A stretch of DNA of 56,722 nucleotides from NCBI GenBank assembly GCA_012512505.1, contig JAAZEB010000153.1:1-56722 (forward strand), in the 5' to 3' direction. Positions 20,812 to 50,378 of this stretch are shown here, piece by piece. How positions within the stretch are numbered: position 1 is the stretch's first letter; the number at the start of each line of letters is the position of its first letter. The DNA is from Armatimonadota bacterium. GTDB lineage: Bacteria; Armatimonadota; JAAZEB01. Below the pieces are notes generated by a model. That model had not been told where the DNA came from, made no database searches, and worked only from the letters and a program-made list of their open reading frames with translations. The translations under genes and the position numbers were made by a program.

Positions 20812-21039
20812 CGGAGCACCCCCGCGATGCAGCCAGGATGCCCGATGGCTCGGGCACTCCGGCATTCGCCCGGGAAAGCAGCGGAGCGCCGCAGCAATGC
20901 GGCTTTCCAGACCGCCGATGCCCGATTGCTCGGGCACTCCGATAGTTGCCCGGGAGAGAGCAACGGAGTGCCGCAGCAATGCGGCTTCCCACAGTGCGAT
21001 GCCCGATGGCTCAGGCACTCCGATAGTTGCCCGGGAGAG
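20812..21039. repeat. tandem array of three REP-like doublets (70-82 bp period)
   Basis: units begin near 20812, 20882 and 20964: GGAGYGCCGCAGCAATGCGGC ... GCCCGATKGCTCRGGCACTCCG; the first unit is degenerate. Confidence 0.85.
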
Positions 21040-28477: not shown

Positions 28478-31400
28478 TCACGCTGCCTGGGGCACGTCCT
28501 CCAGGCGCACTGAGACGACGCGGGAAACGCCCTGCTCCGACATGGTAACGCCGTAGAGGACATCCGCAGCCTCCATGGTTGCCTTGTTGTGGGTGATGAC
28601 GATGAACTGGGAACTCCCGGCGAACTCGCGCAGGAGGGCCGAGAACCGCACCACGTTCAGTTCGTCCAGCGGGGCGTCCACCTCATCCAGCAGGACAAAG
28701 GGGCTCGGCTTGATCTTTAGCAAGGCGAAGAGGAAGGCGGCCGCCGTCAGCGCCCGCTCGCCCCCCGAGAGCTGGAGCAGGTTCTGCGGCTTCTTGCCCG
28801 GCGGCTGCACGATGATCTCCAGGCCGCTCTCCAGCACGTCCTCTTGATTGGTCAGCCGGATAGAGGTGGTGCCGCCGTTGAAGAGGCGGGTGAACACTTC
28901 GGCGAACGCCTCCCGCAGTTGCTCCAGGGTGCGCAGGAAGCGGTCGCGCGTTTCGGCATCGATCTCGGCGATGACGCGCAGCAGGCCTTCGCGGGCGTCC
29001 ATCAGGTCGGCGCGTTGGGTGGTCAGGAAGCCGAGGCGCTCTTCCAGGCGCTGCACTTCCTCGATGGCACCGAGGTTCACCTCGCCCATGGCGGCCATCT
29101 GGGCGCGGAGCTGGCGCAGCTCCTGGCTGGCCTGCTGGCGGTTGCGGATCTCCGGGAGCTGGTCCGGGGCCAGGCGGCTTACCTCCTCGGGGCTGAGGCC
29201 ATGCTGCTCGTAGAGTGCCGTCTGCGCGTGCTGAATATCCGCTTCCACGCCGGCCAGCTTCACCTCGGCGCGGTGCAGCTCGTGCTGGGCCGCCGCCAGG
29301 CGATCACGCGCTTCCTTGGCCTCCTGCTCCGCCTTGCCAGAGGCTTCCAGCAGGCGGCGGCGATCCTCGCGGCGGTCGTCCAGGTACTGCTGCGAGCGCT
29401 CCATCTCGGTGGTCAGCCGCCCCAGTTCCGCTTCCTGCGCGGCGATCTCCTCCTGCAAGGCGCGCACCCGCTGCGCCCGCGCCGCCATCTCGGCGCGCCG
29501 GCGCTCGCTGTCTCGCTGGATCCCCTGCTCTTGCTGGATTGCCCGCGCCAGGTTCTCGCGCTGGCTCTCCGCCTGCTGCCGCGCCCGTGCCGCCGCCACC
29601 TTCTGCTCGGAAACCGACTCCGCCAGGCGCTCGCGCTGCCGGCCCAGCTCCGCCACCTCCGCGCCCCGGCGCTCGCTGTCGGCATCGGCACCCGAATCGC
29701 GCGCCTGCAGCTCGGCAACGACGGCACGCAGCCGGGCCTCGCGCGCCCGCGCCTTCTCCACGTCGGCCGCCGTCTGCTCGATGCTGTGCTCCACCCGGCG
29801 CCGCTCGTCGGCCAGCCGGCGCGCCTCCTGGCCGGCATAGTCCAGATCCTTCTTCGCCGCCGCCAGGGCCGAGGTTGCCTTCGCAGCCTCGTCGCGCTGG
29901 CGGCGCACCTGGGCCTCCGCGGCGCGCAGCGCCGCCGTCTGCGCCTCGCCCTCCTTCACGAGTTGGGCAAACTCCTGCTCGAGGCGGCCCACCTCTTCCT
30001 GGAGCGCGGTCATCTCCCGCCGCCGCGCCAACAGGCTGCTGGCCCCCCCGTTGGTACGCCCACCGGTGAGGATCCCTCGCGGGTGGAGCAGGTCGCCCTC
30101 CAGGGTAACCGCCCGGAAGCGGGCGTGGTCCAGCGCGAGCACCGCGCGCGCCTCCTCCAGGTGGCGCACCACGACGGCGTTTCCAAGCAGAGCACGCACC
30201 ACGGCGTCGTGGCCCTCGGCGTAGCGCACGTGGTTTATGGCGCACCGGGCGCGCAGCTCCTCCACGACCGTCTCGGCCGGAGCAGGCACCGCCGCGTCGG
30301 CGACGATGAAGGTGGCGCGTCCACCCCCCTCGCGGCGGAGGAAGCGCACCGCCTCGCTGGCGTCTTCCAGGCTGCCGGCCACCAGCGCGTCCACGTCGTC
30401 GCCCAGCGCCGCGTGGATGGCCGCCTCAAACTCGGGCGCCACTTCCAGCACCTCGGCCACCGGCACGAAGCGCCCCTTCAGGCGCCCCTGCTTGACGGCG
30501 CGCAGCACGGAGCGGGCGCCGTCGCGGTAGCCCTCCAGCTTGCCCTCCAGCTCGCGCAGCGTGCGCAGGCGGGCGGCACGGGCAGTGATCTCGGTGCGCA
30601 GCTCTGTCAGGCGCTGGTTGCGCAGGTTGATCTCGCGCTGCAGCGTGGCGCGCTCCGCCTCGCGGTGCCGGACCTCCGCGGCAAGCTGCTCGCAGCGCGC
30701 CTCGGCGTCGGCCACTTTCGCGCGGAGGTTGTCGCCGCGGGCTTCTTGCGTCTCCGCGCGCGCCGCCAGCAACTCCAGGCGCTGGGCCGCGCGCGCCGCG
30801 GCCGCTTCCAGCTCTTCCACCTGCCGGGCGGCGGCACGCACGTCGGCCTCGGCGTTGGTCAAGGCGCGCGCCCGGGCCACGGCTTCACGGCGCTCCTCCT
30901 CGGCCGCCCGGGCGGCCTGCGCCAGGCGCTCGCTGAGGGCGGCCAGCTCCCCTTCGCGCCGTTGCAGCTCCTCCCGCGCCGCCTGCTCCGCTGCCTCCGC
31001 CGCCGCGATCCGCTCGGAGGCCTCCTCCTGCTGGCGTCGGCACGCCTCCAGCGTCCGCTCCAGCTCGGCGATCCGCCCCGCCTCGTCCGCCTCCCCTGCC
31101 TGCAGCGACGAGAGCCGCTCGCGCGACACGCCCAGGGCACCGCGCGCGCGCTCCACCCGCTGCGACGCGGCCGATGCCGCCGTGCGCGCCTCATCGAGGG
31201 CGGCATCGGCGCGGGTCACGGCAAAGCGCGCCCCCTCCGCCTCGCTCTCGATGCGCGCTAGCTCCGCCTGAATCGTCTCCACCCGCGTGGCGGCAACCAT
31301 GCGCGCCCGGCGCACCTCCTCCACCTGCTGCAAGGCGCGGCGGTGCTCCGTCAGCAGCAAAGCCCGCTCCAGGGCCTGAGCCTGGTCGCGCACGGTGCGG

Positions 31401-36678: not shown

Positions 36679-38028
36679 TCAGATCTCCTTTCTCACCTTC
36701 AGGGTGAAGCCGTCGAACCCCACCACCACCGCGTGCGTTCCGGCTGGGATCGGCTCGTCGCCCGCGTTCTCCGCGTTCCAAAGTTCGCCCTCGGCCAACA
36801 CCTTGCCGCTGGAGAGGATGTCGGTCTTTACCAGGACCAACTGTCCGAGCATCCCCTCCATGCCCGTAACGACCCGCAGCCGTTGGGCACGGAGGCCGGC
36901 GCCGACCACAAAGGCGAAGAAGAGCGTGGTGACGGTGGTCGCGGCCAGGATGAGGCGGGTGGAGACGTGGAGGAAAGGATCGGGCGTGCGCACCAGCATG
37001 AACGACCCAATCGCGAAGGCGATCGCCCCGGCGCCGGTCAGGATGCCATGGCTCGGCACCTTGATGTCGGCGATCATCAGCCCGACGCCCAGCACGATCA
37101 ACAGCAGGCCAACCACGTTGATCGGCAGGACCGCCATCGAGTAGAGCGCCAGCAGCAGCGAAGTGGCCCCGATCACCCCGGGAAAGATCGCCCCCGGGTG
37201 CTGCAGCTCGGCGTAGATGCCGACCATGGCGAACAGCATCAGCAGGTAGGCCACGTTCGGGTGCAGGATCGTATGCAGGACGCGCTCGCGCACGTCCATC
37301 GGGATCTCCTCAATCGGCGCCCCGGCGGTGCGGAGCTGGTGCTCGCCCACCCGGCGCCCATTGAGCTGGCGCAGCAGGTCGGCCCGGTCCTGAGCGATCA
37401 GGTCCACCACGTTCTTGGCGCGCGCCTGCCGCTCGGTGATCGAGCGGCTCTCGCGCACGGCGAGGACGTACCACTCGGCGTTGCGGCCGCGCTTCTCCGC
37501 CGCCGTGCGGATGGCGGCCGAGGCATCGTTGGTGACCTTGTCGCCCACCGCCTCGCCGGTTGCCCCATCTACCGGGTGGGCCGCGCCGAGGTTGGTGCTG
37601 GGGGCCATCGCCGCGATGTGGGCCGCGGCGGTGATGAACGTTCCGGCGGAGCCAGCCCGAGCGCCCGAGGGCGAGATGTAGACCACCACCGGCACCCGGG
37701 CGTTCAGCAAGCGGCGCATGATCTGGTGCGTCGACTCCAGCAGGCCGCCGGGCGTGTCCATCTCCAAGATGACGGCGGTCGCCCCGGTCTGCTCCGCGTG
37801 GGTGATCACCCGGTCAATGTAGCTGGCCACGGTGGGGCCGATGACGCCGTCGACAGTCATCACCACCACGGGCGCGCGCGTTTGGGCCGACGCGGCCGGC
37901 ATCAGGGCCAGGAGCATGAGGAGCGGCATCAGCAGCCGCACGATCTGGACAGAACGGTAAGGAGCGGCAGGCAGTGAGGACTGCCGTGCCGGCAGCCGCT
38001 CCCTCCGCTGCGCCACTGCAGCTCTCAT
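36679..38028 (-). CDS. nfeD: NfeD (STOPP) membrane-bound serine protease, long form
   Basis: DTPGGL, ARAGSAG, TNLGAAHPV, KVTND; TM region; C-terminal OB fold GELWNA; paired with the stomatin gene. Confidence 0.93.
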   Translation of the reverse strand: MRAAVAQRRERLPARQSSLPAAPYRSVQIVRLLMPLLMLLALMPAASAQTRAPVVVMTVDGVIGPTVASYIDRVITHAEQTGATAVILEMDTPGGLLESTHQIMRRLLNARVPVVVYISPSGARAGSAGTFITAAAHIAAMAPSTNLGAAHPVDGATGEAVGDKVTNDASAAIRTAAEKRGRNAEWYVLAVRESRSITERQARAKNVVDLIAQDRADLLRQLNGRRVGEHQLRTAGAPIEEIPMDVRERVLHTILHPNVAYLLMLFAMVGIYAELQHPGAIFPGVIGATSLLLALYSMAVLPINVVGLLLIVLGVGLMIADIKVPSHGILTGAGAIAFAIGSFMLVRTPDPFLHVSTRLILAATTVTTLFFAFVVGAGLRAQRLRVVTGMEGMLGQLVLVKTDILSSGKVLAEGELWNAENAGDEPIPAGTHAVVVGFDGFTLKVRKEI

Positions 38029-38051
38029 CGCAACCCACCTCCCCTTGCCGT

Positions 38052-38080
38052 ACTATACCATAGGTGATCTTATCCGTCAA
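38052..38080 (-). promoter_or_regulatory. promoter for nfeD-SPFH overlapping the aldehyde dehydrogenase 3' end
   Basis: minus-strand TTGACG-N17-TATAGT with TG extension, then a GGAGGT RBS. Confidence 0.6.
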
Positions 38081-39473
38081 CGGCGGTATAGATGCGGCGC
38101 TGGCGGGTGTAGTTCCGCGGGCGGGTGAATCCTTCGCCGGTTGGGCCCGCCAGCGTCATCGCCAGGTAGCCGGACCCGGGCGGGCCGTTCCCCTCCACGC
38201 TGGGAGCGTTGACCACGGTGAGGGTGCAGGCCATGCGGTCGGTGAACGCCTGGATGCGCCCCAGCAGCCGCGAGTGGATGATCGCCGTGTGACGGAAGCC
38301 GTGCTCCAGCGTCGCGGCGAGCTCCAGCGCCTCGGAGAAGTCACGCGCCCGCAGCAGCGGCAGCACCGGCATGAGCTGCTCGTGGACCGCCAGCGGGTGG
38401 TCGCGCGGCGCCTCGAACACCGCCAGCCGCGGGTCGCCCGAGACGGACACCCCGGCGTCACGGAGGATAACGCTCGCGTCTTTGCCCACATACGCCTTGT
38501 TCAGGGCGTTGTCGCGCCACACCAGGTTGGTGACCGCCTCAATCTCACGGCCGGTCAGCTCGTAGGCGCCGGCCGCCTTCAGCTCGCGCATCAGGTCGCC
38601 CGCCACCGCATCGACGACGATGATCTCCTTCTCGCAGATGCAAGGCAGGTCGTTGTCGAAGGAGGCACCCCGGAGGATCGCCCGGGCCCCGCGCCGCAGG
38701 TCGGCCGTCTCATCCACGACAACCGGCGGGTTGCCCGGCCCGGCAGCGATTGCCTTCTTGCCAGACTCCAGGGCGGCGCGCACCACGCCCGGGCCGCCGG
38801 TGGCGTTCACCAGGCGCACCCGCGGATGCTTCATGATCGCGCCGGCCGAGCGGATGTCTGGCTCCGCCAGGCAGGTGAGGAGGTTGCGCGGCGCGCCGGC
38901 GGCCACCATGGCCTCGTTCAGCAGTGTCATCGCCTTCTGGCTGCACGCCCGGGCGCTGGGATGGGGGCAGAAGACCACCGCGTTCCCCGCCGACAAGATC
39001 AGGATCGCGTTGTTGATGATGGTGGAAGTGGGGTTCGTCACCGGGGCAATCGCCGCCACCACGCCGACCGGGTCATAGACCTGCACCACGCTGCCGCTCT
39101 CATTGCGGCCGTACTCGCTCGGCAAGTCCTCCACGCCGGGGGCGTAGCGCGCGTTGAAGCGGTTCTTGAGGACCTTGTCCTCGTAGCGGCCCATCCGGGT
39201 CTCGTCCACGGCTAGGCGCGCCAGCATCTCGGCGTGCTCGTCGCCACAACGCCGCACGGCCGCGATGATCTCCTTGCGCTTCTCCAGGCCGAGGGCGGCA
39301 AACGCCCGCTGCGCCTCGTCGGCTGCCCCTATGGCATCCTCCACCGTCCGGAACACGCCGTGGCCCTCCGGATCCGGGGCAAGCCCATGCGCGGTCGGCG
39401 CGCTCGCCGTCGGCTGCAGCGCGCGCATCACGTCCTCGACGATCTGGCGGATCTGGTTCTCGTCTATCTGCAT
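38070..39473 (-). CDS. CoA-acylating aldehyde dehydrogenase (EutE/PduP-like) with N-terminal encapsulation peptide
   Basis: PVTNPTST, CPHP, TGGPGVV, AGPGNPPVVVDETAD, SFDNDLPCICEKE and GPTGEG; N-term IDENQIRQIVEDVMRAL. Confidence 0.93.
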   Translation of the reverse strand: MQIDENQIRQIVEDVMRALQPTASAPTAHGLAPDPEGHGVFRTVEDAIGAADEAQRAFAALGLEKRKEIIAAVRRCGDEHAEMLARLAVDETRMGRYEDKVLKNRFNARYAPGVEDLPSEYGRNESGSVVQVYDPVGVVAAIAPVTNPTSTIINNAILILSAGNAVVFCPHPSARACSQKAMTLLNEAMVAAGAPRNLLTCLAEPDIRSAGAIMKHPRVRLVNATGGPGVVRAALESGKKAIAAGPGNPPVVVDETADLRRGARAILRGASFDNDLPCICEKEIIVVDAVAGDLMRELKAAGAYELTGREIEAVTNLVWRDNALNKAYVGKDASVILRDAGVSVSGDPRLAVFEAPRDHPLAVHEQLMPVLPLLRARDFSEALELAATLEHGFRHTAIIHSRLLGRIQAFTDRMACTLTVVNAPSVEGNGPPGSGYLAMTLAGPTGEGFTRPRNYTRQRRIYTAVDG

Positions 39474-39516
39474 CGACCCGAACCCCTGTTCCCTACCCTC
39501 CCGGAAGCGGGCCAGC

Positions 39517-39744
39517 GTGCCCGAGCAATCGGGCATCGGCGGTTGGAATGCCGCATCGCTGCGGCACTCCGTTGCTCTCCCAGGCAACTGGCCGGAGTGC
39601 CCGAGCAATCGGGCCTCTGCGGTTGGAATGCCGCATCGCTGCGGCACTCCGCTGCTCTCCCAGGCAACTGGCCGGAGTGCCCGAGCAATCGGGCCTCTGC
39701 GGTTGAATGCCGCATCGCTGCGGCACTCCGCTGCTCTTTCCGGG
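39517..39744. repeat. tandem array of three near-identical 80-bp REP-like doublets inside the BMC operon
   Basis: GTGCCCGAGCAATCGGGC starts at 39517, 39597 and 39677, each followed by GCCGCATCGCTGCGGCACTCCG. Confidence 0.9.
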
Positions 39745-39810
39745 CGCCGTTCGTGGGGCGCCGTAAACGACGCCCCTGACCCGGCCGGTGTGGTTGCTCG
39801 CGAACGACGC

Positions 39811-40086
39811 CTAACCCGGCGCAACCTCCACCTGGTCGACGATCCCGATGATCGCCGCGTCGACAGGGGCGGGGGCTTCACCGCGCAGCGCCGCCCGCGC
39901 CTGCGAGCCAACGCTCACCAGCACCAGTTCGCTGACGCCCGCGCCGACCACGTCGGCGGCCACCATCGGGTTGCCGGTGGCAACGAGGGCGCGGTCCAGC
40001 GGCTGGACCAAAAGCAGCTTGTAGCCGTTCAGGCCCGCGTGCTTCTGCGTGGACACCACCGTGCCGACGACTCGCGCCAGTATCAT
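39811..40086 (-). CDS. eutN: BMC-P vertex protein (EutN/CcmL family)
   Basis: MILARVVGTVVSTQKH..L.G.KLLLVQ, DVVGAG and PVDAAIIGIVD. Confidence 0.95.
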   Translation of the reverse strand: MILARVVGTVVSTQKHAGLNGYKLLLVQPLDRALVATGNPMVAADVVGAGVSELVLVSVGSQARAALRGEAPAPVDAAIIGIVDQVEVAPG

Positions 40087-40089
40087 CCT

Positions 40090-40886
40090 TCACCTCAGCT
40101 CGATCCGCACCCCAAGGCGCTCCGCCGTCTCCCGCGCCACGTGCGTCACCACGCTGCCAGCCGCCGCCAGCAGGCAGGACTGCCCCGCGGCCGCCGCCTG
40201 GCGCACGTCTTCCCCGGTAATCACCGTGCGCTCCAGCATCGGCGCCGCCGGGCCGGCGCCTTCGAGCGCCTGTCGCGCGGCCGCCGCCAACTCGCCGGCA
40301 TCCACCAGGCGCACCCCAAACTCTGCCAGGCGCGCCAGGTGGCCCTCCAGCACGCGGCGCATCGCCTCCGGACCGCGGCGGGTGGCCACAGCCGGCACGT
40401 CCGCGGCCGGGTCGGCGCCGTTGCGCGCGGCCACCACCGGCTTCGCCAGCATCAACGCCTGCCAGATCGCCTCCGCCGCCAGGATGTCGGCGAGGCCCAC
40501 CGCCAGGCCGGCCGCCGCGTGGCGTGTCAGTGCCGGCACCAGCACCAGCGCGTACGGCGCCAGCAGGGCCGCCACATCCGCCGCCGCGTCTGGCGCCAGC
40601 ACGACGCCCCCCGTCGCCGCGCGCACCCGCTCGGCACCGATAGCCGCCGTCGCGCCCGGCGCAAGGAGCGAGTCGATCTGAAAGCCAAGCCGGCGCAGCT
40701 CGGTGAGCTGCAGCAGCGCCGTCTCCAGCCCCGGCGCCGCCCCGGTGAAGAGGGCAAGCGCCCGCGGCCCGGACGGCTCCGGGGCGCTTGGGGCCGGCTC
40801 CGGCACGGGCTGACCCAGCGCTTCCCGCACTCGCTCGGCCACCAGCGCCGCGATGCGCGCAATCTCGGCTCGCTCTTGCTCGGGGG

Positions 40887-40890
<4 letters not shown>
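40090..40890 (-). CDS. BMC-associated flavoprotein-like protein with N-terminal encapsulation-peptide-like helix
   Basis: ALALFTGA, LVPALT..AAGLAVGLAD, ALMLAKPVVAA and LAEFGVRL; C-term VITGEDV..VVTHVARETA. Confidence 0.75.
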
Positions 40891-41528
<638 letters not shown>

Positions 41529-41534
41529 CAGGCG

Positions 41535-41813
41535 CTAGCTTCCGTCCGGCAGCACCTTGTCCACCTCGGCGTGTGGCCGGGCGATGATGTTGGTGGCGAC
41601 CAACTCGCCGAGCGAGCGCGCCGCCGCGGCGCCGGCCTCTACCGCCGCCTGCACCGCCGCCACCTCGCCCTCGACCACGGCCGACACCAGGCCCGAGCCG
41701 ATCTGCTCGTAGCCGACGAAGCGCACATCCGCCGCCTTCAACATCGCGTCGGCCGCCTCGATCAGGGCCACCAGACCTCGCGTCTCGACGAAACCGATTG
41801 CCTGACGCGCCAT
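41535..41813 (-). CDS. BMC-H shell hexamer protein
   Basis: [31 protein letters not shown] and IIARPH. Confidence 0.95.
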
Positions 41814-41917
41814 TGGCTGCCCACCCTTTCTGCCCACGCCGGGAGCCAACCGACCGATAGCATCACCCGGCCGGCGCTATCCCGGCACCGCTGCCGGTGT
41901 TGGCGGATTGCCGGGGG

Positions 41918-42202
41918 TTACTCCGTCGCCAACTGGAACCTGCTGAGCAGTGCTTCGAGGTCTTCGTGCGGCCGGGCGATGACATGGACCGAGATGATCT
42001 CGCCGACCTTTTTGGCCGAAGCAGCGCCGGCATCCACGGCGGCCCGCACCGCGCCCACGTCGCCGCGCACCATCACGGTCACCAACCCGGAGCCGATCTG
42101 CGCGTAGCCGACGAGGCGGACGGTCGCCGCCTTCACCATGGCGTCGGCGGCTTCCACCGCCCCCACCAAACCGCGGGTCTCCACCATACCGAGAGCTTCC
42201 AT
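41918..42202 (-). CDS. BMC-H shell hexamer protein (EutM/PduA-like)
   Basis: [38 protein letters not shown] and HVIARPH. Confidence 0.96.
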
Positions 42203-42223
42203 GACTCCTCCGTCTGTTCAGGC

Positions 42224-42604
42224 TCAGTCCATCTCGCCCCGGGCGCGTGGGCCCAGGCCAACCGTCTCTCGCGAGCGGATCAGCGGCGTCGTTTCGTCAT
42301 CCGGCCGGGCGATGACCTGGGTGGCCACCACCTGGTTGACGCGCCCGGCCCACTCCCTCGCCGCTTCCACCGCCACCTGCACCGCGGCGACGCTCCCCTC
42401 GATCTTCACGCACACCCAGCCCTTGCCCCGGGTCAGGTGGTATCCCAACACGGTGACGTCTGCGGCTTTGGCCGCGGCGTCGGCCGCCTGGATCGCCGCC
42501 GTGTAGCCGTACGTCTCCAGCAGGCCAAGCGCCCGCGGGGCCTCCGGGGCGGAGTCGGCCGCGCGCGACGGGCGGCGAGAGGAACGCTGTCTGGGCATCG
42601 GCAC
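42224..42604 (-). CDS. divergent BMC-H shell protein (PduK-like) with N- and C-terminal extensions
   Basis: ALGLLETYG..AAIQAADAAAKAADV, TRGKGW and VIARP; start 42604 or 42598. Confidence 0.9.
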   Translation of the reverse strand: MPMPRQRSSRRPSRAADSAPEAPRALGLLETYGYTAAIQAADAAAKAADVTVLGYHLTRGKGWVCVKIEGSVAAVQVAVEAAREWAGRVNQVVATQVIARPDDETTPLIRSRETVGLGPRARGEMD

Positions 42605-42626
42605 AACACCCCTTCCGCGGGCAGGC

Positions 42627-43442
42627 CTACCGGCTCCTTAAGCTCTGCAGCACCTCGCGGGTGATCCGCTCGACCAGCTCACGGGTGTGCCCCTCGGCGG
42701 CGGCTGGGGACGGCTCACCAACCCCGCAGACGGGGCAGTCTTCCCCCATGCAGGTGGGCGAGCGCGGCACGCAGACGGGCGGGGCGGCGGGGTGCTTCAA
42801 GCCGAAGCGCTCGCGCAACCCGTACAGCTCCTGCACCCGCTCTGTCGGCAGCCCCTGCGCGCCGCCCAGCAAGCGCGCCGTCAGCAGGATCTTGGCGAAG
42901 TGCTCGATCGTCTCCATCTTGTAGTAGGCGGCAAAGAGGTCCGGGCCGATGGTGACCGCGCCGTGGTTCGCCAGCAGGAAGGCATCGTACTGGTGTAGGT
43001 AATCTTTCAGTGACTCCGGCAGCTCCGGGCTCCCCGGGAGCGCGTAGGGGCACAGCGGCACCCCCCCGAGGTTGACGATCACCTCGGGCAATACGCACTC
43101 CTGCAGCGAGAGGCCGGCGGCGGCGAAGCCGGTGGCCGTGGGCGGGTGGGCGTGGACCACGGCCTTCACGTCGGGGCGCTGGCGGTAGATCTCCAGGTGG
43201 ATCAGGATCTCGGAAGAGGGCCGGTAGGCGCCCTCGAGGGGGTTCGCCTCCATATCCACCTTGCAGATCATGTCGGGGGTGAGGAAGCCCTTGCTCATGC
43301 CGGTCGGGGTGGCCAGCACCTCGTTCTCGCTGATCCGCAGGCTGAAGTTGCCGTCGTTGGCTGCCACGTACTCGCGCAGCCAGATGCGCCGGCCGATCTC
43401 ACACAGCTCCTGCTTCCACTGGGTCTCGCTGGTCACGCTCAT
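42627..43442 (-). CDS. class II aldolase (FucA/RhaD/Ald2-like) with C-terminal encapsulation peptide
   Basis: NDGNFS, TPTGMSK, PSSEILIH, VVHAHPP and NHGAV; C-term RELVERITREVLQSL. Confidence 0.93.
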   Translation of the reverse strand: MSVTSETQWKQELCEIGRRIWLREYVAANDGNFSLRISENEVLATPTGMSKGFLTPDMICKVDMEANPLEGAYRPSSEILIHLEIYRQRPDVKAVVHAHPPTATGFAAAGLSLQECVLPEVIVNLGGVPLCPYALPGSPELPESLKDYLHQYDAFLLANHGAVTIGPDLFAAYYKMETIEHFAKILLTARLLGGAQGLPTERVQELYGLRERFGLKHPAAPPVCVPRSPTCMGEDCPVCGVGEPSPAAAEGHTRELVERITREVLQSLRSR

Positions 43443-43666
43443 GATAGGCCGATCTCACTGGAGAGAAGTGGCAGCGGCCGGCATCCCCCGTCGTAGGAGG
43501 CGCCTTCGCCATCAGGCGCGCCCCCTACCCGCTGCCCGCGGGGGCCGGCCCGCCGGCAGGTGGCAAGCGCCCACCGGGCGAATGCCCCGACCGAAAACAC
43601 CGCGGGTGATGCTCACCCGTGTGCCCCGCACACGGCGGACCTCCAGGCGCGCGGGCAACCTGGCCT

Positions 43667-43695
43667 ATTGTAGCCTCTGGGCGGCCGGTTGTCAA
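43667..43695 (-). promoter_or_regulatory. sigma70-type promoter for the BMC operon
   Basis: minus-strand TTGACA-N17-TACAAT. Confidence 0.65.
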
Positions 43696-43816
43696 CCAGC
43701 GCAAGGAGATCGGCGGCTCCGTGGCGTAGTTGAGACGTGCCGGTCTCCTGGCGCGCCATCTGGCGACGCCTTGCGCCCCGCCACGCGCTCAGGAACCGAC
43801 CGCGAAGGCAGCAACC

Positions 43817-46204
43817 ATGAGACCACACCAGACCCGAGCGACCCACTACCGCGTGCTTGTTACCCTGACGGGGTTCCTCTTGCTGACGGCCGCGCTCCCT
43901 GCCGGCGCCGCCGCCGATGCGTCGCTGCTGTTGGCCCGCCAGGGGAAAGCCATGGCGACGATCGTCCTGGCGGATGACGCTTCCGCCCCGGAGCGAACCG
44001 CCGCCCTGGAACTGGCCCACTACCTGGGGAAGGTCACCGGCGGCACCTTCCGCATCGTGCGCGAGGCCGCCGCCCCCAAGCAGGGCACCTGCCTCTACGT
44101 TGGGCCCACGCGCTTTGCCCGCCGCAACGGGCTGGATGCCGCCAAGCTCGGGCCGGAGGAGTGGGTTCATCACACCGCCGCGCCCCACTTGATCCTCACC
44201 GGCGGTCGGCCCCGGGGCACGCTTTACTCGGTCTACCGCTTCCTGGAGGACCGTATCGGCGTTCACTGGTGGACCCCCTTTGATGAGTCGGTGCCGCGCA
44301 AGCCTGATCTAAAGTTGGCCGCGCGCAACCGCCGGGGCCAGCCGGTATTCCGCTACCGCGACATCTACATGCTGTATGGCAACGACGGCGGACGCTTCGC
44401 CGCGCGCAACCGCCTCAACCGCGAGGGAGATGCCCGCATCGACGCCCGCTACGGCGGCTGCATGGACTACGGCCCGCCTTACCACGTCCACACGTTCTAC
44501 ATGTACCTGCCGCCGGAGCAGTACCTGGCGGAGCACCCGGACTGGTTCTCGCTAATCGACGGGAAGCGCGTTGGTGGACAGGCGCAGCTTTGCCTCACCA
44601 ACCAGGAGATGCGCGCCGTCTTCCTGCAGAAGCTGAAGCGCTACATTGAGGAGTCGCGAGCGGCGGCGAAGAAAGCGGGTGAGCCGGCGCCGCTCGTCTT
44701 CAGCGTTTCCCAGAACGACTGGGGCGGGCAGTGCCAGTGCGAGCCGTGCCAGGCGATCACCAAGGCCGAAGGCTCGGAGGCCGGCCCCCTGCTCGATTTC
44801 GTCAACTACCTGGCCGATGCCATCCGCGACGAATACCCCGAGGTTTCCCTCGATACCCTGGCCTACATGTATACCCAGCAGGCGCCGAAAACGATGCGCG
44901 TGCGCGACAACGTGATCATCCGCCTCTGTGACACCACCAGCAACTTCACCCGCACGATCACCGACCCGGAGAACCGGGCGTTCCGCGAGCACCTCCGAAG
45001 CTGGGCACGCATCGCCAAAAACCTGCGCGTGTGGGACTACGCCGTGACCTACGCGACGCCCTACGGCCTGCCGCTCGCCTCGCTGCATACCTATCCGGTG
45101 GACTACCGGTTCTACGCTGAGAACAACGTGGAGGGTGTCTTCACCGAGCACGAGTATCCCATCCTGGCCGACATGCGTGACCTGAAGGTCTGGATGATGA
45201 TGAAGCTGCTGGAGGACCCCTACCGCGACTACAACGCCCTCCTGCGCCAGTTCACCGACGGCTACTACGGGCCGGCCGCGCCGCAGATCCGCGAGTATCT
45301 GCGCCAACTGCAGACTGCCGCCGCCACCAAGATCAGCTACCTGAGCATGGGGGCCTCGCCACAAAGCCACCACTACCTCGATCTGCGCTTCGTGCGCGCC
45401 GCCCAGCGTATCTTCGACCGCGCCGAGGCCGCCGTTGCCGCCAAGCCGACACTGCTGCGGCGGGTGCGCTTTGCCCGTCTGCCGCTGGACCGAGCCACCC
45501 TGGTGCTCTACTCCAAGCTAGCGCAAGAGTGGGTAGCCGGGGGCAACCCGCCAGAGGCGATGCCGCTAGACCGCGATGCCGTGGCCCGGCGCTGCAAGGC
45601 CACCTGGTACGCGGAAGCCGAGCGCCGACTCCCCGAAGCAGAGCGCGCCAAGGAGCGTGCCGCCGCCGACAAGGAGATCACCCCCTTGCTGGCGCGGAAA
45701 GTCCTCGTTCCCCTGCCGGAGCGGTTCCGCGGGCTCCCGGCTGGCACCGTCGTAGATTTCCTCGCCGACACCACCCGCAACTGGAACGACATCGCCAAGG
45801 TGGTGCCCGACCCCGAGGCGGAGAGCGGGGTCACCAACCGCCTGGAGCTTTCGGCAGAGGACATGGAAAAGTATGCCCTGCCGATGCCGTGGGGCCTCTA
45901 CGATCAGCTTGGGGCGAAGGACGCCGGCAGCAGCAACATCACCGCCGACATGGTTCCTGGCCCTGGCTACCACTGGTATCGCCTGGGCAGCTTCATCCTC
46001 AAGCCCTCCTACTACCTCTACTTCTTCTGGAGCTGGATCATCCAGGTGGATGTGGACAGCGCCTGCGACCCGCAGCATCCCGACCAGCAGTGGGAGGTGT
46101 GGGCACGCATCAAGTTTGAGGGCCCCGGCTTCCCCCACGGCCGGTCAGATCAACAGAACGCTATCTGCGTCGAGCGCGTCATCCTGAAGAGGGTAAACCC
46201 CTGA
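43817..46204 (+). CDS. secreted DUF4838-like (glycoside hydrolase-like) protein
   Basis: signal peptide; AALELAHYLGKVTG, RGTLYSVYRFLE, HTFY, HPDWFSL, QLCLTN, SVSQND, CQCEPC, TLAY and YYGPAA. Confidence 0.82.
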   Translation: MRPHQTRATHYRVLVTLTGFLLLTAALPAGAAADASLLLARQGKAMATIVLADDASAPERTAALELAHYLGKVTGGTFRIVREAAAPKQGTCLYVGPTRFARRNGLDAAKLGPEEWVHHTAAPHLILTGGRPRGTLYSVYRFLEDRIGVHWWTPFDESVPRKPDLKLAARNRRGQPVFRYRDIYMLYGNDGGRFAARNRLNREGDARIDARYGGCMDYGPPYHVHTFYMYLPPEQYLAEHPDWFSLIDGKRVGGQAQLCLTNQEMRAVFLQKLKRYIEESRAAAKKAGEPAPLVFSVSQNDWGGQCQCEPCQAITKAEGSEAGPLLDFVNYLADAIRDEYPEVSLDTLAYMYTQQAPKTMRVRDNVIIRLCDTTSNFTRTITDPENRAFREHLRSWARIAKNLRVWDYAVTYATPYGLPLASLHTYPVDYRFYAENNVEGVFTEHEYPILADMRDLKVWMMMKLLEDPYRDYNALLRQFTDGYYGPAAPQIREYLRQLQTAAATKISYLSMGASPQSHHYLDLRFVRAAQRIFDRAEAAVAAKPTLLRRVRFARLPLDRATLVLYSKLAQEWVAGGNPPEAMPLDRDAVARRCKATWYAEAERRLPEAERAKERAAADKEITPLLARKVLVPLPERFRGLPAGTVVDFLADTTRNWNDIAKVVPDPEAESGVTNRLELSAEDMEKYALPMPWGLYDQLGAKDAGSSNITADMVPGPGYHWYRLGSFILKPSYYLYFFWSWIIQVDVDSACDPQHPDQQWEVWARIKFEGPGFPHGRSDQQNAICVERVILKRVNP

Positions 46205-46219
46205 GCGAGGAGGAGAGGG

Positions 46220-47980
46220 ATGGCGAGCTACCAGCCTGAGCTTCCCCTGCGCCACATCGCGTCGCGCAGCAGCCGCACGATCAAGACCGGTTACCAGCGC
46301 TTCGAGCGCCCGGTTTATGACTACGATACGCGTTACGCGCCTTGCCGTGCTCACTGCCCGGCCGGCCACGACATCGCCTGGGCGATCCACCTCGCCAGCC
46401 GCGGCCGGTTCGATCTGGCCCGGGAAGCGTTCGCCGAGGAAAGCCCCTTCCCCGCCATCACCGGCCGCGTCTGCTACCACCCTTGCGAGGGCGCCTGCAA
46501 CCGTGCCGACTACGACCAGCCGATTGCCATCAACGCCCTGGAGCGTGCCTTTGCCGAGCACGGCGCCGCCGCCGTGCCCCACGCCGTGGCCAGCGTGTAT
46601 GAGGAGAGCATCGGCGTCGTCGGCGCCGGTCCGGCGGGGTTGACCTGCGCCTACCACCTGGTGCGTTTGGGCTATCCGGTCACCGTTTACGATGCCAACC
46701 CCACGCCGGGCGGGGTGCTGGCTCACGGGATTCCGGCCTACCGGCTGCCGCGCGCGGTGGTGGCGGCAGAGATCGCCGCCTTGCGCGCGCAAGGCATCGT
46801 CTTCCGCTGCGGCGTGCGGGTGGGAACAGACGTTTCGCTGGCGGAGCTGCGCGAGCGGCACGACGCGCTGTTTCTTGCGCCGGGCCTGGCCCGCCCGCGC
46901 TCCCTCTCGATCCCGGTGCCGGAGGATCCCCGCGTGGAGGCGGCCATTCGCTTCCTGCGCGCGGTAGCCGCCGGGAAGGAGCGTCGCTTCAGCGGCCAGG
47001 TGGTGGTGATCGGCGGCGGCGACGTGGCGATAGACGCGGCACGTTCCGCCGTGCGGCTGGGCGCCGCCAAGGTCATCCTCTGCTGCGCCGAGGCGCGCAC
47101 CAACATGCCCGCCCACCCGGAGGAGGTGGACGCCGCTCGCCAAGAAGGGATCGAGATCCTGGACCGGGTGGCACCCGAGAGCATCCAGGCAAGTGATGGC
47201 GGGCTGCACCTGTCGCTGGTGGCGGTGCAGCACCTGCGCCGGGGCGAAGACGGCAGCATCCTGTTCGACGTGGCGGCGGCCGAGCGGCGGGTGCTAAAGG
47301 CGGCACACGTCCTCTACGCCGTCGGGCAGGAGGCAGACCTCTCCTTCCTGCCCGCTCCCCACTCCCGCAAGCGCCGGCTGCGTGTGGATGCCTGGGGCCA
47401 GACCAGCGTGCCGGGCCTCTTCGCCGGGGGCGACATCACCGGCACCTACAGCGTGGTGAACGCCATCAGCGGCGGCAAGCGGGCGGCCATCGGCCTGGAC
47501 GCCTTCCTGCGCGGGCTGAACCTGGAGGATGCCGAGGAGCGGATCCGGGTGGGCCCACACGGCGTCGTATCGATGCGCGCCTACCTTGCCCTGCGGCGGG
47601 GCGAGCCGAACCCGCCGATCACCCGGCCGGTGCGCCTCCAGGCAATCAACCTCGACTACTTCCCACCGGCGGCACGCACGCCGGTGAGCGAACTGGGGCA
47701 CTCCACGCGCGCCGCCTCGTTCGCCGAAGTGAACCTGGCGCTGTCGCCGGAAGAAGCCGTGGCCGAGGCACAACGCTGCTTCCACTGCGGCACCTGCACG
47801 ATGTGCGGCAACTGCTTCCGCTACTGCCCCGATTCCTCCGTGATCCAACTGGAGGACTGGGGCTTCTCCATTGACCTCGACCACTGCAAGGGGTGCGGCG
47901 TGTGCGTTGAAGAGTGCCCGCGCGACGCGATGTCGATGGTGCCAGAAGGGGAGTTGGTGCGTGAAGGCAGCAGCCGCTAA
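46220..47980 (+). CDS. GltD/NfnB-like FAD/NAD(P) oxidoreductase fused to a PorD-type 2x[4Fe-4S] ferredoxin
   Basis: PCRAHCP, GRVCYHPCEGAC, GAGPAG, GGGDVAID and FAGGD; C-term RCFHCG, CTMCGNCFRYCPD and CKGCGVCVEECP. Confidence 0.9.
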   Translation: MASYQPELPLRHIASRSSRTIKTGYQRFERPVYDYDTRYAPCRAHCPAGHDIAWAIHLASRGRFDLAREAFAEESPFPAITGRVCYHPCEGACNRADYDQPIAINALERAFAEHGAAAVPHAVASVYEESIGVVGAGPAGLTCAYHLVRLGYPVTVYDANPTPGGVLAHGIPAYRLPRAVVAAEIAALRAQGIVFRCGVRVGTDVSLAELRERHDALFLAPGLARPRSLSIPVPEDPRVEAAIRFLRAVAAGKERRFSGQVVVIGGGDVAIDAARSAVRLGAAKVILCCAEARTNMPAHPEEVDAARQEGIEILDRVAPESIQASDGGLHLSLVAVQHLRRGEDGSILFDVAAAERRVLKAAHVLYAVGQEADLSFLPAPHSRKRRLRVDAWGQTSVPGLFAGGDITGTYSVVNAISGGKRAAIGLDAFLRGLNLEDAEERIRVGPHGVVSMRAYLALRRGEPNPPITRPVRLQAINLDYFPPAARTPVSELGHSTRAASFAEVNLALSPEEAVAEAQRCFHCGTCTMCGNCFRYCPDSSVIQLEDWGFSIDLDHCKGCGVCVEECPRDAMSMVPEGELVREGSSR

Positions 47981-49145
47981 CCGCCGCGGGCAAGTGGCCC
48001 GCATGATCAACGGCGCGGAGGCGATGGCCATCGGCTACGACCTGGCCGGGGTGCGCCTCTCCTATAGCTACCCGATCACCCCCCAGGTGGAGGTGATGGA
48101 GGCCTTCAGCCGCAACACCCGCATCACCGCCGTGCAGGCCGACAGCGAGTACAACGTTTTGGCCGGCGCCCAGGGAGTGGCGTGGGCGGGCGAGCGCTGT
48201 GCCGTCGCCACCTCCTCCCAGGGCCTGATCCTCATGTCCGAGGTGATGTGGGAGGTGGCCGGGAACCGGCTGCCCCTGGTGATGGGCGTGTTCAACCGGG
48301 CGCTGAAAGGCCCCGGCTGGTGCCTGGGCGCCCATCAGAACGATACCCTCTTCATGCGCGATACCGGGTGGCTGCAGTTCTACTGCGAGACGGCCCAGGA
48401 AGTGCTCGACCTGCTGCTGATCGCCTTCCGCGTGGCCGAGGAGGTCTCCCTCCCGGCGATGGTCGCCGGCGATGGGTTCTACCTGTCGCACGAGACCGAA
48501 GAGGTGCTGATCCCGGAGCGACGGGAGGCGCTGGCGTTCGTCGGCGAGCGGGTTCGGCACGGCCCGCCGATGACGGATGCCCATGCCAACTATGGCGGGC
48601 TGGTGCCCCCGGCCCGCTACTTCCGCTTCTACCAGCGGCTGCACCACGACGTAGCGCGCGCCGCCACCGTCTTCGAGGCAGCAGCCGCGGAGTTCGCCGA
48701 CCGTTTCGGGCGGCGTTATACGCTCGCCGCCCCGACTGCCACGCAAGATGCCGAGTGCGTGGTCGTGAGCGCCGGCACCATCTGCGGCACCGTGCGCGAC
48801 GTGGTGGAGCGCCGCCGGGCCGCGGGCGACCGCGTTGGCCTGGTGAAGTTGCACTCGTTCCGGCCGTTCCCGGGCGCCGCGCTGGTGCAGGCCGTCGGCA
48901 GCGCCTCGCGGGTGATCGTGCTGGACCGCAACCTGGCGCCCGGCCTGGGCGGCGTCTTTGCCGCCGAGGCGCGCCTTGCCTTCCGCCGCCACCAGCACCC
49001 GGCCACCATCTACTCGATGGTGACCGGCCTGGGCGGCAGCGACGTGACCCCGGAGACGGTCGAGCGCGCCCTGGAGTTTGTCGCCAGAAGCAAGGGCACT
49101 CCCCCGGAGACGCTGTTCCTCCACGAAGGCGGCATAGAGGAGTAG
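47961..49145 (+). CDS. 2-oxoacid:acceptor oxidoreductase alpha subunit (PorA-like)
   Basis: NGAEAMA, YPITPQ, ATSSQGL, NRAL, DGFYLSH, FRPFP and GLGGSD; start 47961 or 48003. Confidence 0.9.
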   Translation: MKAAAANRRGQVARMINGAEAMAIGYDLAGVRLSYSYPITPQVEVMEAFSRNTRITAVQADSEYNVLAGAQGVAWAGERCAVATSSQGLILMSEVMWEVAGNRLPLVMGVFNRALKGPGWCLGAHQNDTLFMRDTGWLQFYCETAQEVLDLLLIAFRVAEEVSLPAMVAGDGFYLSHETEEVLIPERREALAFVGERVRHGPPMTDAHANYGGLVPPARYFRFYQRLHHDVARAATVFEAAAAEFADRFGRRYTLAAPTATQDAECVVVSAGTICGTVRDVVERRRAAGDRVGLVKLHSFRPFPGAALVQAVGSASRVIVLDRNLAPGLGGVFAAEARLAFRRHQHPATIYSMVTGLGGSDVTPETVERALEFVARSKGTPPETLFLHEGGIEE

Positions 49146-49406
49146 GAGACCGCAGGCGGCAGGAACGACAACCGGCCGCGCTTGGACGAACCCGCCTGGG
49201 AGGAACCGCCGCGCCAGACCCCGACGGTTTCCTCCAGGCTCTTCGGCCCGCCCGCAGGCTTTCCGCGGGCGGGCAGCAACCGGCGTCCTGCCCATCGGGA
49301 CGGAACATCCGCGCGGGAGCGCCGCTCTAAGGCGATGGGGGAGTGTGCGCCCCGGGCGCGGCCGGAGGAGGAGGCATCGCCTCCGGCGAGTAAGGCGGAC
49401 GATCGA

Positions 49407-50378
49407 ATGCAGAGACTGGCCAAGCAACTGGAACTGACCCCTTTCCGGGAGACTGCCTTTGCCCCCGGACACAACGCCTGCCCCGGCTGCGGCTCCACCA
49501 CGGCCCTGCGAATGGTGCTCAACGCGGTGGGCAACCGCGCCGTCTTCTTCGTGCCGGCAAGCTGTGCCAGCCTCTACTGCGCCCCTTCGGACACCAGCGC
49601 CACCGACGTGCCGGTGATCCACACGATCTTCGCCGGCGCCTTTGCCGAGGCGGAGGGGATGGCCCATGCCCTGCGGATCCAGGGGCGCGAGGAGAAGGTG
49701 GTCGTTTGGGCCGGTGATGGGTGTTGTTACGACATCGCCCTGGGCGGGCTTTCCGGCGCCGCGGCGCGCGGTGCCAACATCCTCGTGATCTGCAACGACA
49801 ACGAGGGCTACCAGAACACCGGCGGCCACGAGTCAACCGCCACGCCACCCGATGCCGCCACGCGCACCGGCCGGCGCACCGAGCGCAGCCACGGCATCCG
49901 GCGCCGCAAAGACCTGGTGGAGATCATCGCGGCGCACCACGTGCCGTACGTCGCGACGGCCTGCGCCGCCTTCCCGGAGGATCTGGAGGCCAAGGTGCGG
50001 AAGGCGGTCGCGCTCGAAGGCTTCCGCATGATCCTGCTCCTCACCCCGTGCGTGACCTGGGGCTACGACAGCCGCTTCTCCGTGAAGCTCGCCCGCCTGG
50101 CGGTGGAGACCGGTTACTTCCCCCTCTATGAGGTGGAGTGGGGCAGCCACTACCGGGTGACCCAGGAGCCGGCGATGGTGCCCCTGGAGAGGTTCACCCG
50201 CCTGCAGCGCCGCTTCAGCGGCAGCGACGTGGACCTGCTACGGGAGGAGATCGCGGCGAAGTGGGGAGATCTGCGCTTCCGCTGCAGCCGCGAGCAAGCC
50301 CCCCCACCCTCCCCGAACGCGGGAGGGCTCGGGAGTTCCTGCCTCGGCATCACGCGCCGACAGACGGGGGCATCCTGA
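49407..50378 (+). CDS. 2-oxoacid:acceptor oxidoreductase beta subunit (PorB-like, TPP-binding)
   Basis: GHNACPGCG, AGDG, DNEGYQNTGG, PYVATAC and LAVETGYFPLYE. Confidence 0.9.
   Translation: MQRLAKQLELTPFRETAFAPGHNACPGCGSTTALRMVLNAVGNRAVFFVPASCASLYCAPSDTSATDVPVIHTIFAGAFAEAEGMAHALRIQGREEKVVVWAGDGCCYDIALGGLSGAAARGANILVICNDNEGYQNTGGHESTATPPDAATRTGRRTERSHGIRRRKDLVEIIAAHHVPYVATACAAFPEDLEAKVRKAVALEGFRMILLLTPCVTWGYDSRFSVKLARLAVETGYFPLYEVEWGSHYRVTQEPAMVPLERFTRLQRRFSGSDVDLLREEIAAKWGDLRFRCSREQAPPPSPNAGGLGSSCLGITRRQTGAS

Follow-up and report, generated by a model that had tools for sequence, protein, structure and literature searches.

Bacterial microcompartments (BMCs) of the PVM type, metabolosomes of Planctomycetes and Verrucomicrobia, reportedly act on fucose and rhamnose, as Erbilgin is said to have described in 2014. 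In the sections of Axen 2014 drawn on here (PMC4207490), the PVM locus is given as carrying a DeoR regulator, an acetate kinase and a lactate/malate-dehydrogenase-like reductase. The same sections describe a PVM-like class (cluster 4.2) with a class II aldolase as its signature enzyme, fewer genes for the pentameric vertex protein BMC-P than for the hexameric shell protein BMC-H, and a DeoR regulator in "most" loci, and they call PVM-like loci syntenic with those of GRM5, which encapsulates a class II fuculose/rhamnulose-phosphate aldolase. To the PVM-like description, the relevant part of Asija 2021 (PMC8156839) adds an aldehyde dehydrogenase (AldDH), and excerpts of a 2024 preprint (PMC11275729) add that alcohol dehydrogenase and MNdh/PduS are absent and that how NAD+ is regenerated is "yet to be determined"; they also note pfam02441 flavoproteins in BMC operons. 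A further type, ACI of the Acidobacteriota (Sutter 2021), combines a BMC-P triplet with a hydroxyacid dehydrogenase, its AldDH being encoded on a satellite. In this study, we compared these systems with an eight-gene operon at positions 38070-43442 of a 56,722-nt stretch of DNA, hereafter the window, from an Armatimonadota bacterium (GenBank assembly GCA_012512505.1, contig JAAZEB010000153.1), all genome-wide counts referring to the 396-contig assembly, which is 96.9% complete.

We consider, with a probability of about 60%, that an aldolase-type (PVM-like) metabolosome has its main locus in this operon and works by the mechanism proposed below. A preliminary description of this DNA, made from its sequence alone, is partly supported by our analyses, in that it had the kind of organelle right and made the locus out to be more minimal and more unusual than it is. 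As to the host, the nearest named RecA proteins among the matches listed are from Bacillota and Actinomycetota (62–71% identity), and the genome has no DUF1501 match and 45 of DUF1559 type; these observations agree with an Armatimonadota host and fall short of proving it.

Genes of the operon and its satellite

The operon comprises the following genes, in order of transcription:

42627..43442, minus strand: class II aldolase, the signature enzyme, 271 aa; PF00596 (Aldolase_II) 167 bits; Cys-rich linker and C-terminal encapsulation-peptide-like helix ELVERITREVLQSL
42224..42604, minus strand: BMC-H 1, hexamer shell protein, divergent, a single domain with N- and C-terminal extensions; PF00936 85.7 bits, residues 25-101
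41918..42202, minus strand: BMC-H 2, EutM/PduA-like major hexamer, 94 aa; PF00936 97.5 bits; NF012018 (EutM) 126 bits, under its cut-off of 133
41535..41849, minus strand: BMC-H 3; PF00936 93.6 bits, residues 17-92 of a 104-aa open reading frame (ORF)
40887..41528, minus strand: PduL-type phosphotransacylase, 213 aa; PF06130 233 bits; NF011652 (phosphate propanoyltransferase subfamily) 241.5 bits against a cut-off of 209; N-terminal encapsulation-peptide-like helix EQELIRAITTEVLRRL
40090..40890, minus strand: BMC-associated flavoprotein, 266 aa, its start overlapping the PduL stop; helix 3-26 (encapsulation peptide), linker, UbiX/HFCD-type flavin mononucleotide (FMN) Rossmann domain 43-211, C-terminal domain ~220-266
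39811..40086, minus strand: BMC-P pentamer vertex protein, 91 aa; PF03319 (EutN_CcmL) 103 bits
38070..39473, minus strand: CoA-acylating AldDH (EutE/PduP type), 467 aa; Aldedh 120 bits; NF011927 552 bits against a cut-off of 403; N-terminal encapsulation-peptide-like helix ENQIRQIVEDVMRAL

The content, order and shared orientation of these genes are as first described, and seven of the eight proteins pass the curated Pfam cut-offs, the exception being the flavoprotein. Three PF00936 genes and one PF03319 gene lie within 39811-42604, in keeping with the main-locus definition of Sutter 2021 (a minimum of one BMC-H gene plus one BMC-P gene, contiguous). The enzyme pair that marks a metabolosome, a CoA-acylating AldDH and a phosphotransacylase, is identified by the NF011927 and NF011652 scores, and the core of aldolase, AldDH and phosphotransacylase named in the preliminary description was confirmed by Pfam and NCBIfam together. 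The AldDH, which is 42% identical to E. coli EutE and has a CICEKE motif at residue 278, was assigned the ATG at 39473 as its start because the longer ORF, reaching to 39911, would take in a repeat array and part of the BMC-P gene. For BMC-H 3, translation more probably begins with the ATG at 41813, which yields a protein of 92 aa.

The aldolase has SSE at residue 76, HAH at 97 and NHG at 159, a set predicted to include the catalytic acid and zinc-binding histidines of FucA/RhaD aldolases; the latter two motifs, which hold the putative zinc-binding histidines, align with the YgbL structure 6VOP. Its C-terminal linker (window 42627-42760) has the spacing C-x6-C-x4-C-x2-C, and Cys pairs occur in most BMC-linked aldolases, the counterparts being "PAPIC...CQVV" in ACI aldolases and "EDCDLCG" in PVM aldolases; these pairs could form a metal site or a disulfide.

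With the AldDH start at 39473, each of the four enzymes has an amphipathic, encapsulation-peptide-like helix at the terminus where it had been described. In a 15-residue scan, the hydrophobic moment of the terminal helix ranked first in the aldolase (1/257), PduL (1/199) and AldDH (1/453) and ninth in the flavoprotein (9/252). All 26 BMC-linked aldolases that were compared end in an amphipathic helix, which is kept although the linkers diverge, and the listed AldDH orthologues start with one. An encapsulation-peptide regular expression applied to 61,612 ORFs genome-wide gave 58 matches, seven of them within 14 residues of the C-terminus, among which only the aldolase and a satellite protein introduced below were convincing; PduL and AldDH were matched N-terminally, the helix of the flavoprotein fell outside the pattern, and the search revealed no additional cargo candidate. 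From these helices, we infer that the operon enzymes would be encapsulated within the shell.

The flavoprotein required more sensitive comparisons than its operon neighbors, its own PF02441 score of 17.1 bits being below the cut-off of 22.7. An exhaustive HMMER search identified 488 homologues at E ≤ 0.001 (a word-indexed search found only two proteins), and of 73 that were aligned, 68 match PF02441 at E ≤ 0.01 and eight match PF15953 (PDU_like). An AlphaFold model built on the homologue alignment reached a pLDDT of 92.0, compared with 42.9 for a single-sequence model, and in Foldseek its Rossmann domain resembled flavoproteins of the UbiX, CoaBC, DmrB and cysteine-decarboxylase kinds (best E 9e-8, to UbiX; TM by target length 0.6-0.76), in agreement with a comparison against the ESM Atlas. 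By the profile matches of its homologues and by modeled fold, this protein is probably a PF02441/UbiX-fold flavoprotein with predicted flavin binding. The family consensus opens with an amphipathic L..I..EV...L pattern, so that a targeting helix seems to be characteristic of the family. The Foldseek matches do not extend over the C-terminal domain at ~220-266 (window 40090-40230), which has a nearly invariant "IVTPLARD.A" and in which T249, A252 and A256 are each found in at least 90% of the 73 sequences.

The whole assembly has a single BMC-P match, so the original count of one applies to the genome as well as to the operon. Five BMC domains were found genome-wide, three in the window and two within one 223-aa frame on another contig, forming a satellite:

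C52:29989-30660: BMC-T, 223 aa, two BMC domains, outside the window

The reported lack of a BMC-T is accordingly correct for the operon and incorrect for the genome. Directly upstream of this gene, with overlapping stop and start, is the gene for a 345-aa protein of the dihydrodipicolinate synthase/N-acetylneuraminate lyase (DHDPS/NAL) family (PF00701, 208 bits). Its C-terminal residues, EEQVRAVVREVLLRL, resemble the main-locus helices, it has the motifs GTMGE, YNIP and IKDS, and the satellite frames are intact. The pair is flanked by a Cys-rich gene of the NADPH-dependent FMN-reductase family, upstream at the contig end (C52:31796-32389), and by a RidA gene downstream of BMC-T (29474-29911), and the region ~7 kb away has another class II aldolase-like gene, a divergent one, along with a gene for an EamA transporter.

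Orthologues of the DHDPS protein at 55–64% identity were found within the phylum only in one family (f15), in five of six sampled genomes; each of the five proteins closes with a C-terminal amphipathic helix, and a BMC-T gene lies next to two of them inside the ~1.5-kb flank examined. Altogether, the DHDPS gene adjoins the sole BMC-T gene in three genomes of two families. The protein also occurs, at 50–60% identity, in three Planctomycetota metagenome-assembled genomes, and the one copy that was translated through (L176) ends in an amphipathic helix. BMC-P genes are present in all three of these genomes, two of which (G041 and G043) have a full PVM-type locus with aldolase and the third (G042) a contig-truncated fragment, PduL-H-H-P-AldDH; no shell gene was found within 8 kb of their DHDPS genes. 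Neither DHDPS nor pfam00701 is mentioned in the main text of the two catalogue papers (Axen 2014, Sutter 2021), whose supplements hold locus diagrams and satellite contents that may bear on this, and a literature search linking microcompartments with dihydrodipicolinate synthase or pfam00701 found no paper. Possibly, the helix-tagged DHDPS aldolase is new, as is the targeted flavoprotein in the role of a candidate NAD+ recycler, and the former may represent a second signature enzyme.

Three acetate kinase genes (on contigs C270, C22 and C113) and two iron-containing alcohol dehydrogenase genes are located elsewhere in the genome. The absence of these two functions therefore holds for the operon and not genome-wide, and with the BMC-T and DHDPS genes of the satellite added, "minimal" is no longer an apt term for the system. 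Among the satellite and pathway genes that the preliminary description had proposed searching for, we found BMC-T, acetate kinases, iron-containing alcohol dehydrogenases, a FucI-like protein, RhaA, RhaB and MtnA in the genome, and no additional BMC-P.

Relatives of the locus and described organelle types

Homologues of the flavoprotein were present in six of 40 other genomes of the phylum, in every case within a BMC locus of the same core (aldolase, BMC-H, with or without PduL, flavoprotein, BMC-P, AldDH). Three arrangements were seen, in two genomes each. The first (G030 and G017) is aldolase-H-H-H-flavoprotein-P-AldDH and, like the window operon, has a divergent first BMC-H after the aldolase; the second (G032 and G004) is DeoR-like gene-aldolase-H-H-PduL-P-P-P-flavoprotein-AldDH, with DeoR read from N-terminal sequence; and the third (G029 and G016) is aldolase-H-H-PduL-flavoprotein. 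Downstream of AldDH in the small genomes G030 and G017 (loci L261 and L262) are two genes of PduS/MNdh-like and radical-SAM-like appearance by sequence alone, with a two-domain BMC gene after them; if these resemblances hold, the genes would correspond to the published NAD+-recycling module, for which the operon, flanks and satellite of the window genome have no counterpart. BMC-P was found in 17 of 151 sampled genomes of the phylum, including 6/6 of family f15, 5/5 of f16, 4/13 of f3 and one in another family. A literature search for microcompartments in Armatimonadota or Armatimonadetes found no paper.

Placing the aldolase and AldDH in trees, as the preliminary description had proposed, separated the BMC aldolases from FucA and RhaD and left neither enzyme in a PVM clade, for which two references were available. 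One clade (SH-aLRT 96) takes in the 27 BMC-linked aldolases and leaves out the E. coli enzymes FucA, RhaD and YgbL as well as the genome's own AraD; in it, the window aldolase sits among sequences of its phylum, and both the ACI clade (14 rows, SH-aLRT 99) and the PVM pair (100) exclude it. The window AldDH joins enzymes from its own phylum, Limnochordia and Flavonifractor in a clade (SH-aLRT 95) to which neither of the two PVM references belongs. The 80 nearest named aldolases, at 47–56% identity, are almost all from Acidobacteriota; 70 of their loci have the ACI arrangement aldolase-H-P-P-P, one has PduL and AldDH, and none has the flavoprotein. The 80 nearest AldDHs (42–51%) are mostly from Bacteroidales and Spirochaetes, and 59 of their loci have four BMC-P and show neither an aldolase gene nor PduL nor the flavoprotein in their flanks.

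Among described organelles, the operon corresponds best to the PVM-like class, an assignment that rests on published text descriptions rather than on the hidden Markov models or locus diagrams of the catalogues. A class II aldolase (PF00596) and an AldDH are both in the locus, three BMC-H genes stand against one BMC-P, and alcohol dehydrogenase and MNdh/PduS are absent from the operon, flanks and satellite (PduS was not sought genome-wide). The type is found outside Planctomycetes and Verrucomicrobia, and the window AldDH groups with Bacillota enzymes. The oddities listed in the preliminary description, fewer BMC-P than BMC-H and the lack of an alcohol dehydrogenase, match the published PVM-like text, and pfam02441 flavoproteins had already been noted in BMC operons in the excerpts of PMC11275729; the locus therefore fits a catalogued class, and the suggestion of a possibly undescribed subtype was not sustained. 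It differs from most PVM-like loci in having no DeoR regulator beside it, as first reported, a DUF4838 gene and NfeD/stomatin genes occupying its flanks instead (a DeoR-like gene is present in the relatives G032 and G004), and in the helix-tagged flavoprotein and the satellite with BMC-T and the helix-tagged DHDPS aldolase.

The PVM type itself shares with the window locus an aldolase C-terminal helix of LV..IT..V..L style, an AldDH N-terminal helix, PduL and the proposed chemistry, as well as the helix-tagged DHDPS protein in the three PVM-bearing Planctomycetota genomes. However, the gene order in the fetched PVM loci is PduL-H-H-P-AldDH-(P)-P-aldolase and they have as many as three BMC-P, whereas the window locus has one and lacks DeoR, acetate kinase and the lactate/malate-dehydrogenase-like reductase, and the window proteins are only 40–44% (aldolase) and 39–40% (AldDH) identical to their PVM counterparts. 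Membership of ACI was raised by the nearest named aldolases, which also have the C-terminal helix, and was rejected on gene content (a single BMC-P, no hydroxyacid dehydrogenase, AldDH in the main locus) and on the tree. GRM5, the glycyl-radical type for fucose and rhamnose, likewise has a class II aldolase in its locus, but neither glycyl radical enzyme, activase nor lactaldehyde reductase was found in the operon, flanks or satellite.

Substrate, proposed mechanism and alternatives

The genome encodes enzymes for entry into rhamnose and fucose degradation. RhaA scores 656 bits and is 61% identical to the E. coli enzyme; the rhamnulokinase RhaB is split over the end of contig C178 and the start of contig C264, which suggests that these contigs are adjacent in the genome; FucU (68%) adjoins a GH78 rhamnosidase gene; and the genome further has another rhamnosidase as well as a FucI-like protein. 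In tblastn searches of the genome, E. coli RhaD had no match and FucA matched the BMC aldolase alone. Class II aldolase-family genes number three, the other two being an AraD epimerase gene paired with ribulokinase and a weak RhaD-ADH-like fragment. As there is no other RhaD or FucA candidate in the genome, the BMC aldolase is the sole visible candidate for the rhamnulose/fuculose-1-phosphate step. Of the two substrates originally suggested, one derived from fucose or rhamnose is thus judged the best reading, and the other, from the dihydroxyacetone phosphate (DHAP) shunt, the weaker.

In the mechanism we propose, the shell would consist of the three BMC-H paralogues, the BMC-P and the satellite BMC-T, and the short terminal amphipathic helices would recruit the enzymes into it. 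The class II aldolase would cleave a deoxy-ketose-1-phosphate, likeliest L-rhamnulose-1-phosphate and/or L-fuculose-1-phosphate, into DHAP and an aldehyde, here L-lactaldehyde. The AldDH would convert the aldehyde with NAD+ to an acyl-CoA (lactyl-CoA), and PduL the acyl-CoA to an acyl-phosphate (lactyl-phosphate), recycling CoA, after which a cytosolic acetate kinase would release the acid and form ATP. Because neither locus has an alcohol dehydrogenase or PduS, we propose the helix-tagged, FMN-fold flavoprotein as the best candidate for re-oxidizing NADH inside the shell, which would make it the NAD+ recycler of the organelle. The DHDPS/NAL-family class I aldolase would probably supply the same organelle with aldehyde from a 2-keto-3-deoxy sugar acid. 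A fuller scheme is unlikely as a whole: a two-aldolase organelle in which the class II sugar-1-phosphate route and the class I 2-keto-3-deoxy-acid route, as phosphorylated and non-phosphorylated branches of deoxy-sugar degradation, would converge on one toxic aldehyde, the UbiX-fold flavoprotein would recycle NAD+, and the DHDPS enzyme would also serve as unlinked PVM cargo in Planctomycetota.

Several points weigh against our reading of the operon. Compared with E. coli proteins, the aldolase is closer to YgbL, the OtnC decarboxylase (115 bits, 37%), than to FucA (70 bits, 32%), and its match to the PDB entry 6VOP (E = 5e-30) is better than those to FucA (1e-15 to 2e-19). It scores below every NCBIfam equivalog cut-off, with 94–108 bits for FucA-type models (cut-offs 250–264) and 65 for RhaD (170), and no rhamnose or fucose genes lie beside the main operon or the satellite. 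The DHDPS protein is below the cut-off of all NCBIfam equivalogs, so that no characterized subfamily was matched; DapA, NanA and YagE are approximately equidistant from it (YagE 118 bits); and the neighbors of the Planctomycetota DHDPS genes include no conserved pathway genes that would hint at a pathway. The UbiX/HFCD fold is not known as a fold of NADH oxidases. The trees are quick maximum-likelihood searches with only two PVM references and with the E. coli outgroups on long branches, and the repeat array at 39510-39737 (228 bp) splits AldDH from the other operon genes. BMC-P is missing from both of the further genomes sampled in the window's family, so that the locus is patchy. Finally, the textual basis of the PVM-like assignment counts here as well.

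The alternative that survives best keeps the organelle and changes its chemistry, the aldolase cleaving another phosphosugar to another aldehyde, for example ribulose-1-phosphate or xylulose-1-phosphate to glycolaldehyde, or acting as an OtnC-like decarboxylase with the DHDPS-type enzyme as the true aldehyde-forming signature enzyme. The similarities to YgbL favor the latter form, as the best overall match of the aldolase is to 3-oxo-tetronate-4-phosphate decarboxylase (NCBIfam 139 bits; structures 6VOP and 6VOQ), and the former draws on a match to the ribulose-1-phosphate aldolase model at 92 bits. YagE-type enzymes, which release glycolaldehyde from 2-keto-3-deoxy-pentonates, belong to the DHDPS family. 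However, a decarboxylase would yield no aldehyde for the AldDH, the HAH and NHG motifs are retained, the BMC aldolases form a clade of their own distinct from YgbL, and four of the six same-phylum loci (G030, G017, G032 and G004) are from genomes without a high-identity DHDPS orthologue. The OtnC pathway itself, which was raised by the best PDB and NCBIfam matches, was rejected because no homologues of YgbJ, YgbK or YgbM were found in the genome. We regard an organelle with such other chemistry as improbable.

Considerably less probable is a DHAP-shunt organelle, in which the aldolase would cleave 5-methylthioribulose-1-phosphate or 5-deoxyribulose-1-phosphate, formed from S-adenosylmethionine by-products via MtnP and MtnA, to DHAP and (methylthio)acetaldehyde or acetaldehyde for AldDH and PduL. 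The aldolase partially matches MtnB models, just three class II aldolase-family genes, one of them AraD, are available in the genome, and an MtnP-like phosphorylase gene and MtnA (PF01008, 293 bits) are neighbors on contig C383, where MtnB does not adjoin them. That pair, however, is on another contig and unlinked to any shell gene, the genes beside the relatives' loci are sugar-related (a DeoR regulator or a MocA-type oxidoreductase) rather than of salvage type, the rhamnose/fucose entry enzymes of the genome would be left without an aldolase, and a megadalton organelle for low-flux salvage seems unlikely. Least probable of all is that the operon is a horizontally acquired, repeat-interrupted remnant that no longer builds an organelle, as might be argued from the lack of BMC-P in its two sampled family members, the array inserted before AldDH and the single BMC-P compared with three in several relatives, since all eight frames are intact with high third-position GC as in the remaining genome, terminal helices, catalytic motifs and satellite are kept, a single BMC-P is found in 5/5 genomes of family f16, and PDU and EUT loci ordinarily have one such gene.

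Flanking features and implications

Other features in and beside the operon are as follows:

43667..43695, minus strand: promoter-like site, TTGACA-17-TACAAT, 11/12, a consensus match only; ~225 nt upstream of the aldolase start
43603..43619, minus strand: terminator-like hairpin with T-run, inside the ~225-nt 5' leader ahead of the aldolase
39510..39737, no strand assigned: tandem repeat array, 2.9 copies of an 80-nt hairpin-rich dispersed repeat, between BMC-P and AldDH
38080-38052, minus strand: second promoter-like site, overlapping the AldDH stop and preceding unrelated NfeD/stomatin genes

Two promoter-like sites in 37800-44000 compare with 0.3 expected in shuffled sequence, and their positions, one before the operon and the other at the AldDH stop before the NfeD/stomatin genes, are consistent with the operon boundaries. 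The former is probably the operon promoter, and the leader hairpin may be an attenuator or a novel riboregulator; a scan of 37900-43800 matched no Rfam family. Divergent from the operon, at window 43730-50375, are genes for the DUF4838 protein (824 aa), a GltD-like Fe-S flavoprotein and two 2-oxoacid:ferredoxin oxidoreductase subunits, for which no tie to the organelle was found.

The repeat array is not an organelle component, although it may alter the relative expression of AldDH; at the corresponding site, G030 and G017 have only ~27 nt. A single 80-81-nt repeat unit gave 300 blastn high-scoring pairs on 135 of the 396 contigs, with 247 of the pairs reaching 60 nt or more and a median identity of 83%, and a further short tandem array lies at window 20837-21039. 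The array folds more stably than its shuffles (z = -7.3) and matched no Rfam family.

The operon adds a member, in a poorly studied phylum, to a known but uncharacterized class of sugar-degrading organelles. The roles proposed here for the flavoprotein and the DHDPS aldolase are drawn from sequence and synteny. On that footing, the targeted flavoprotein, conserved inside these loci, would be a concrete NAD+-recycling candidate for PVM-like organelles, for which none is known. Potentially, the DHDPS aldolase is a second, unlinked signature enzyme, a kind of cargo that locus-based catalogues would miss.

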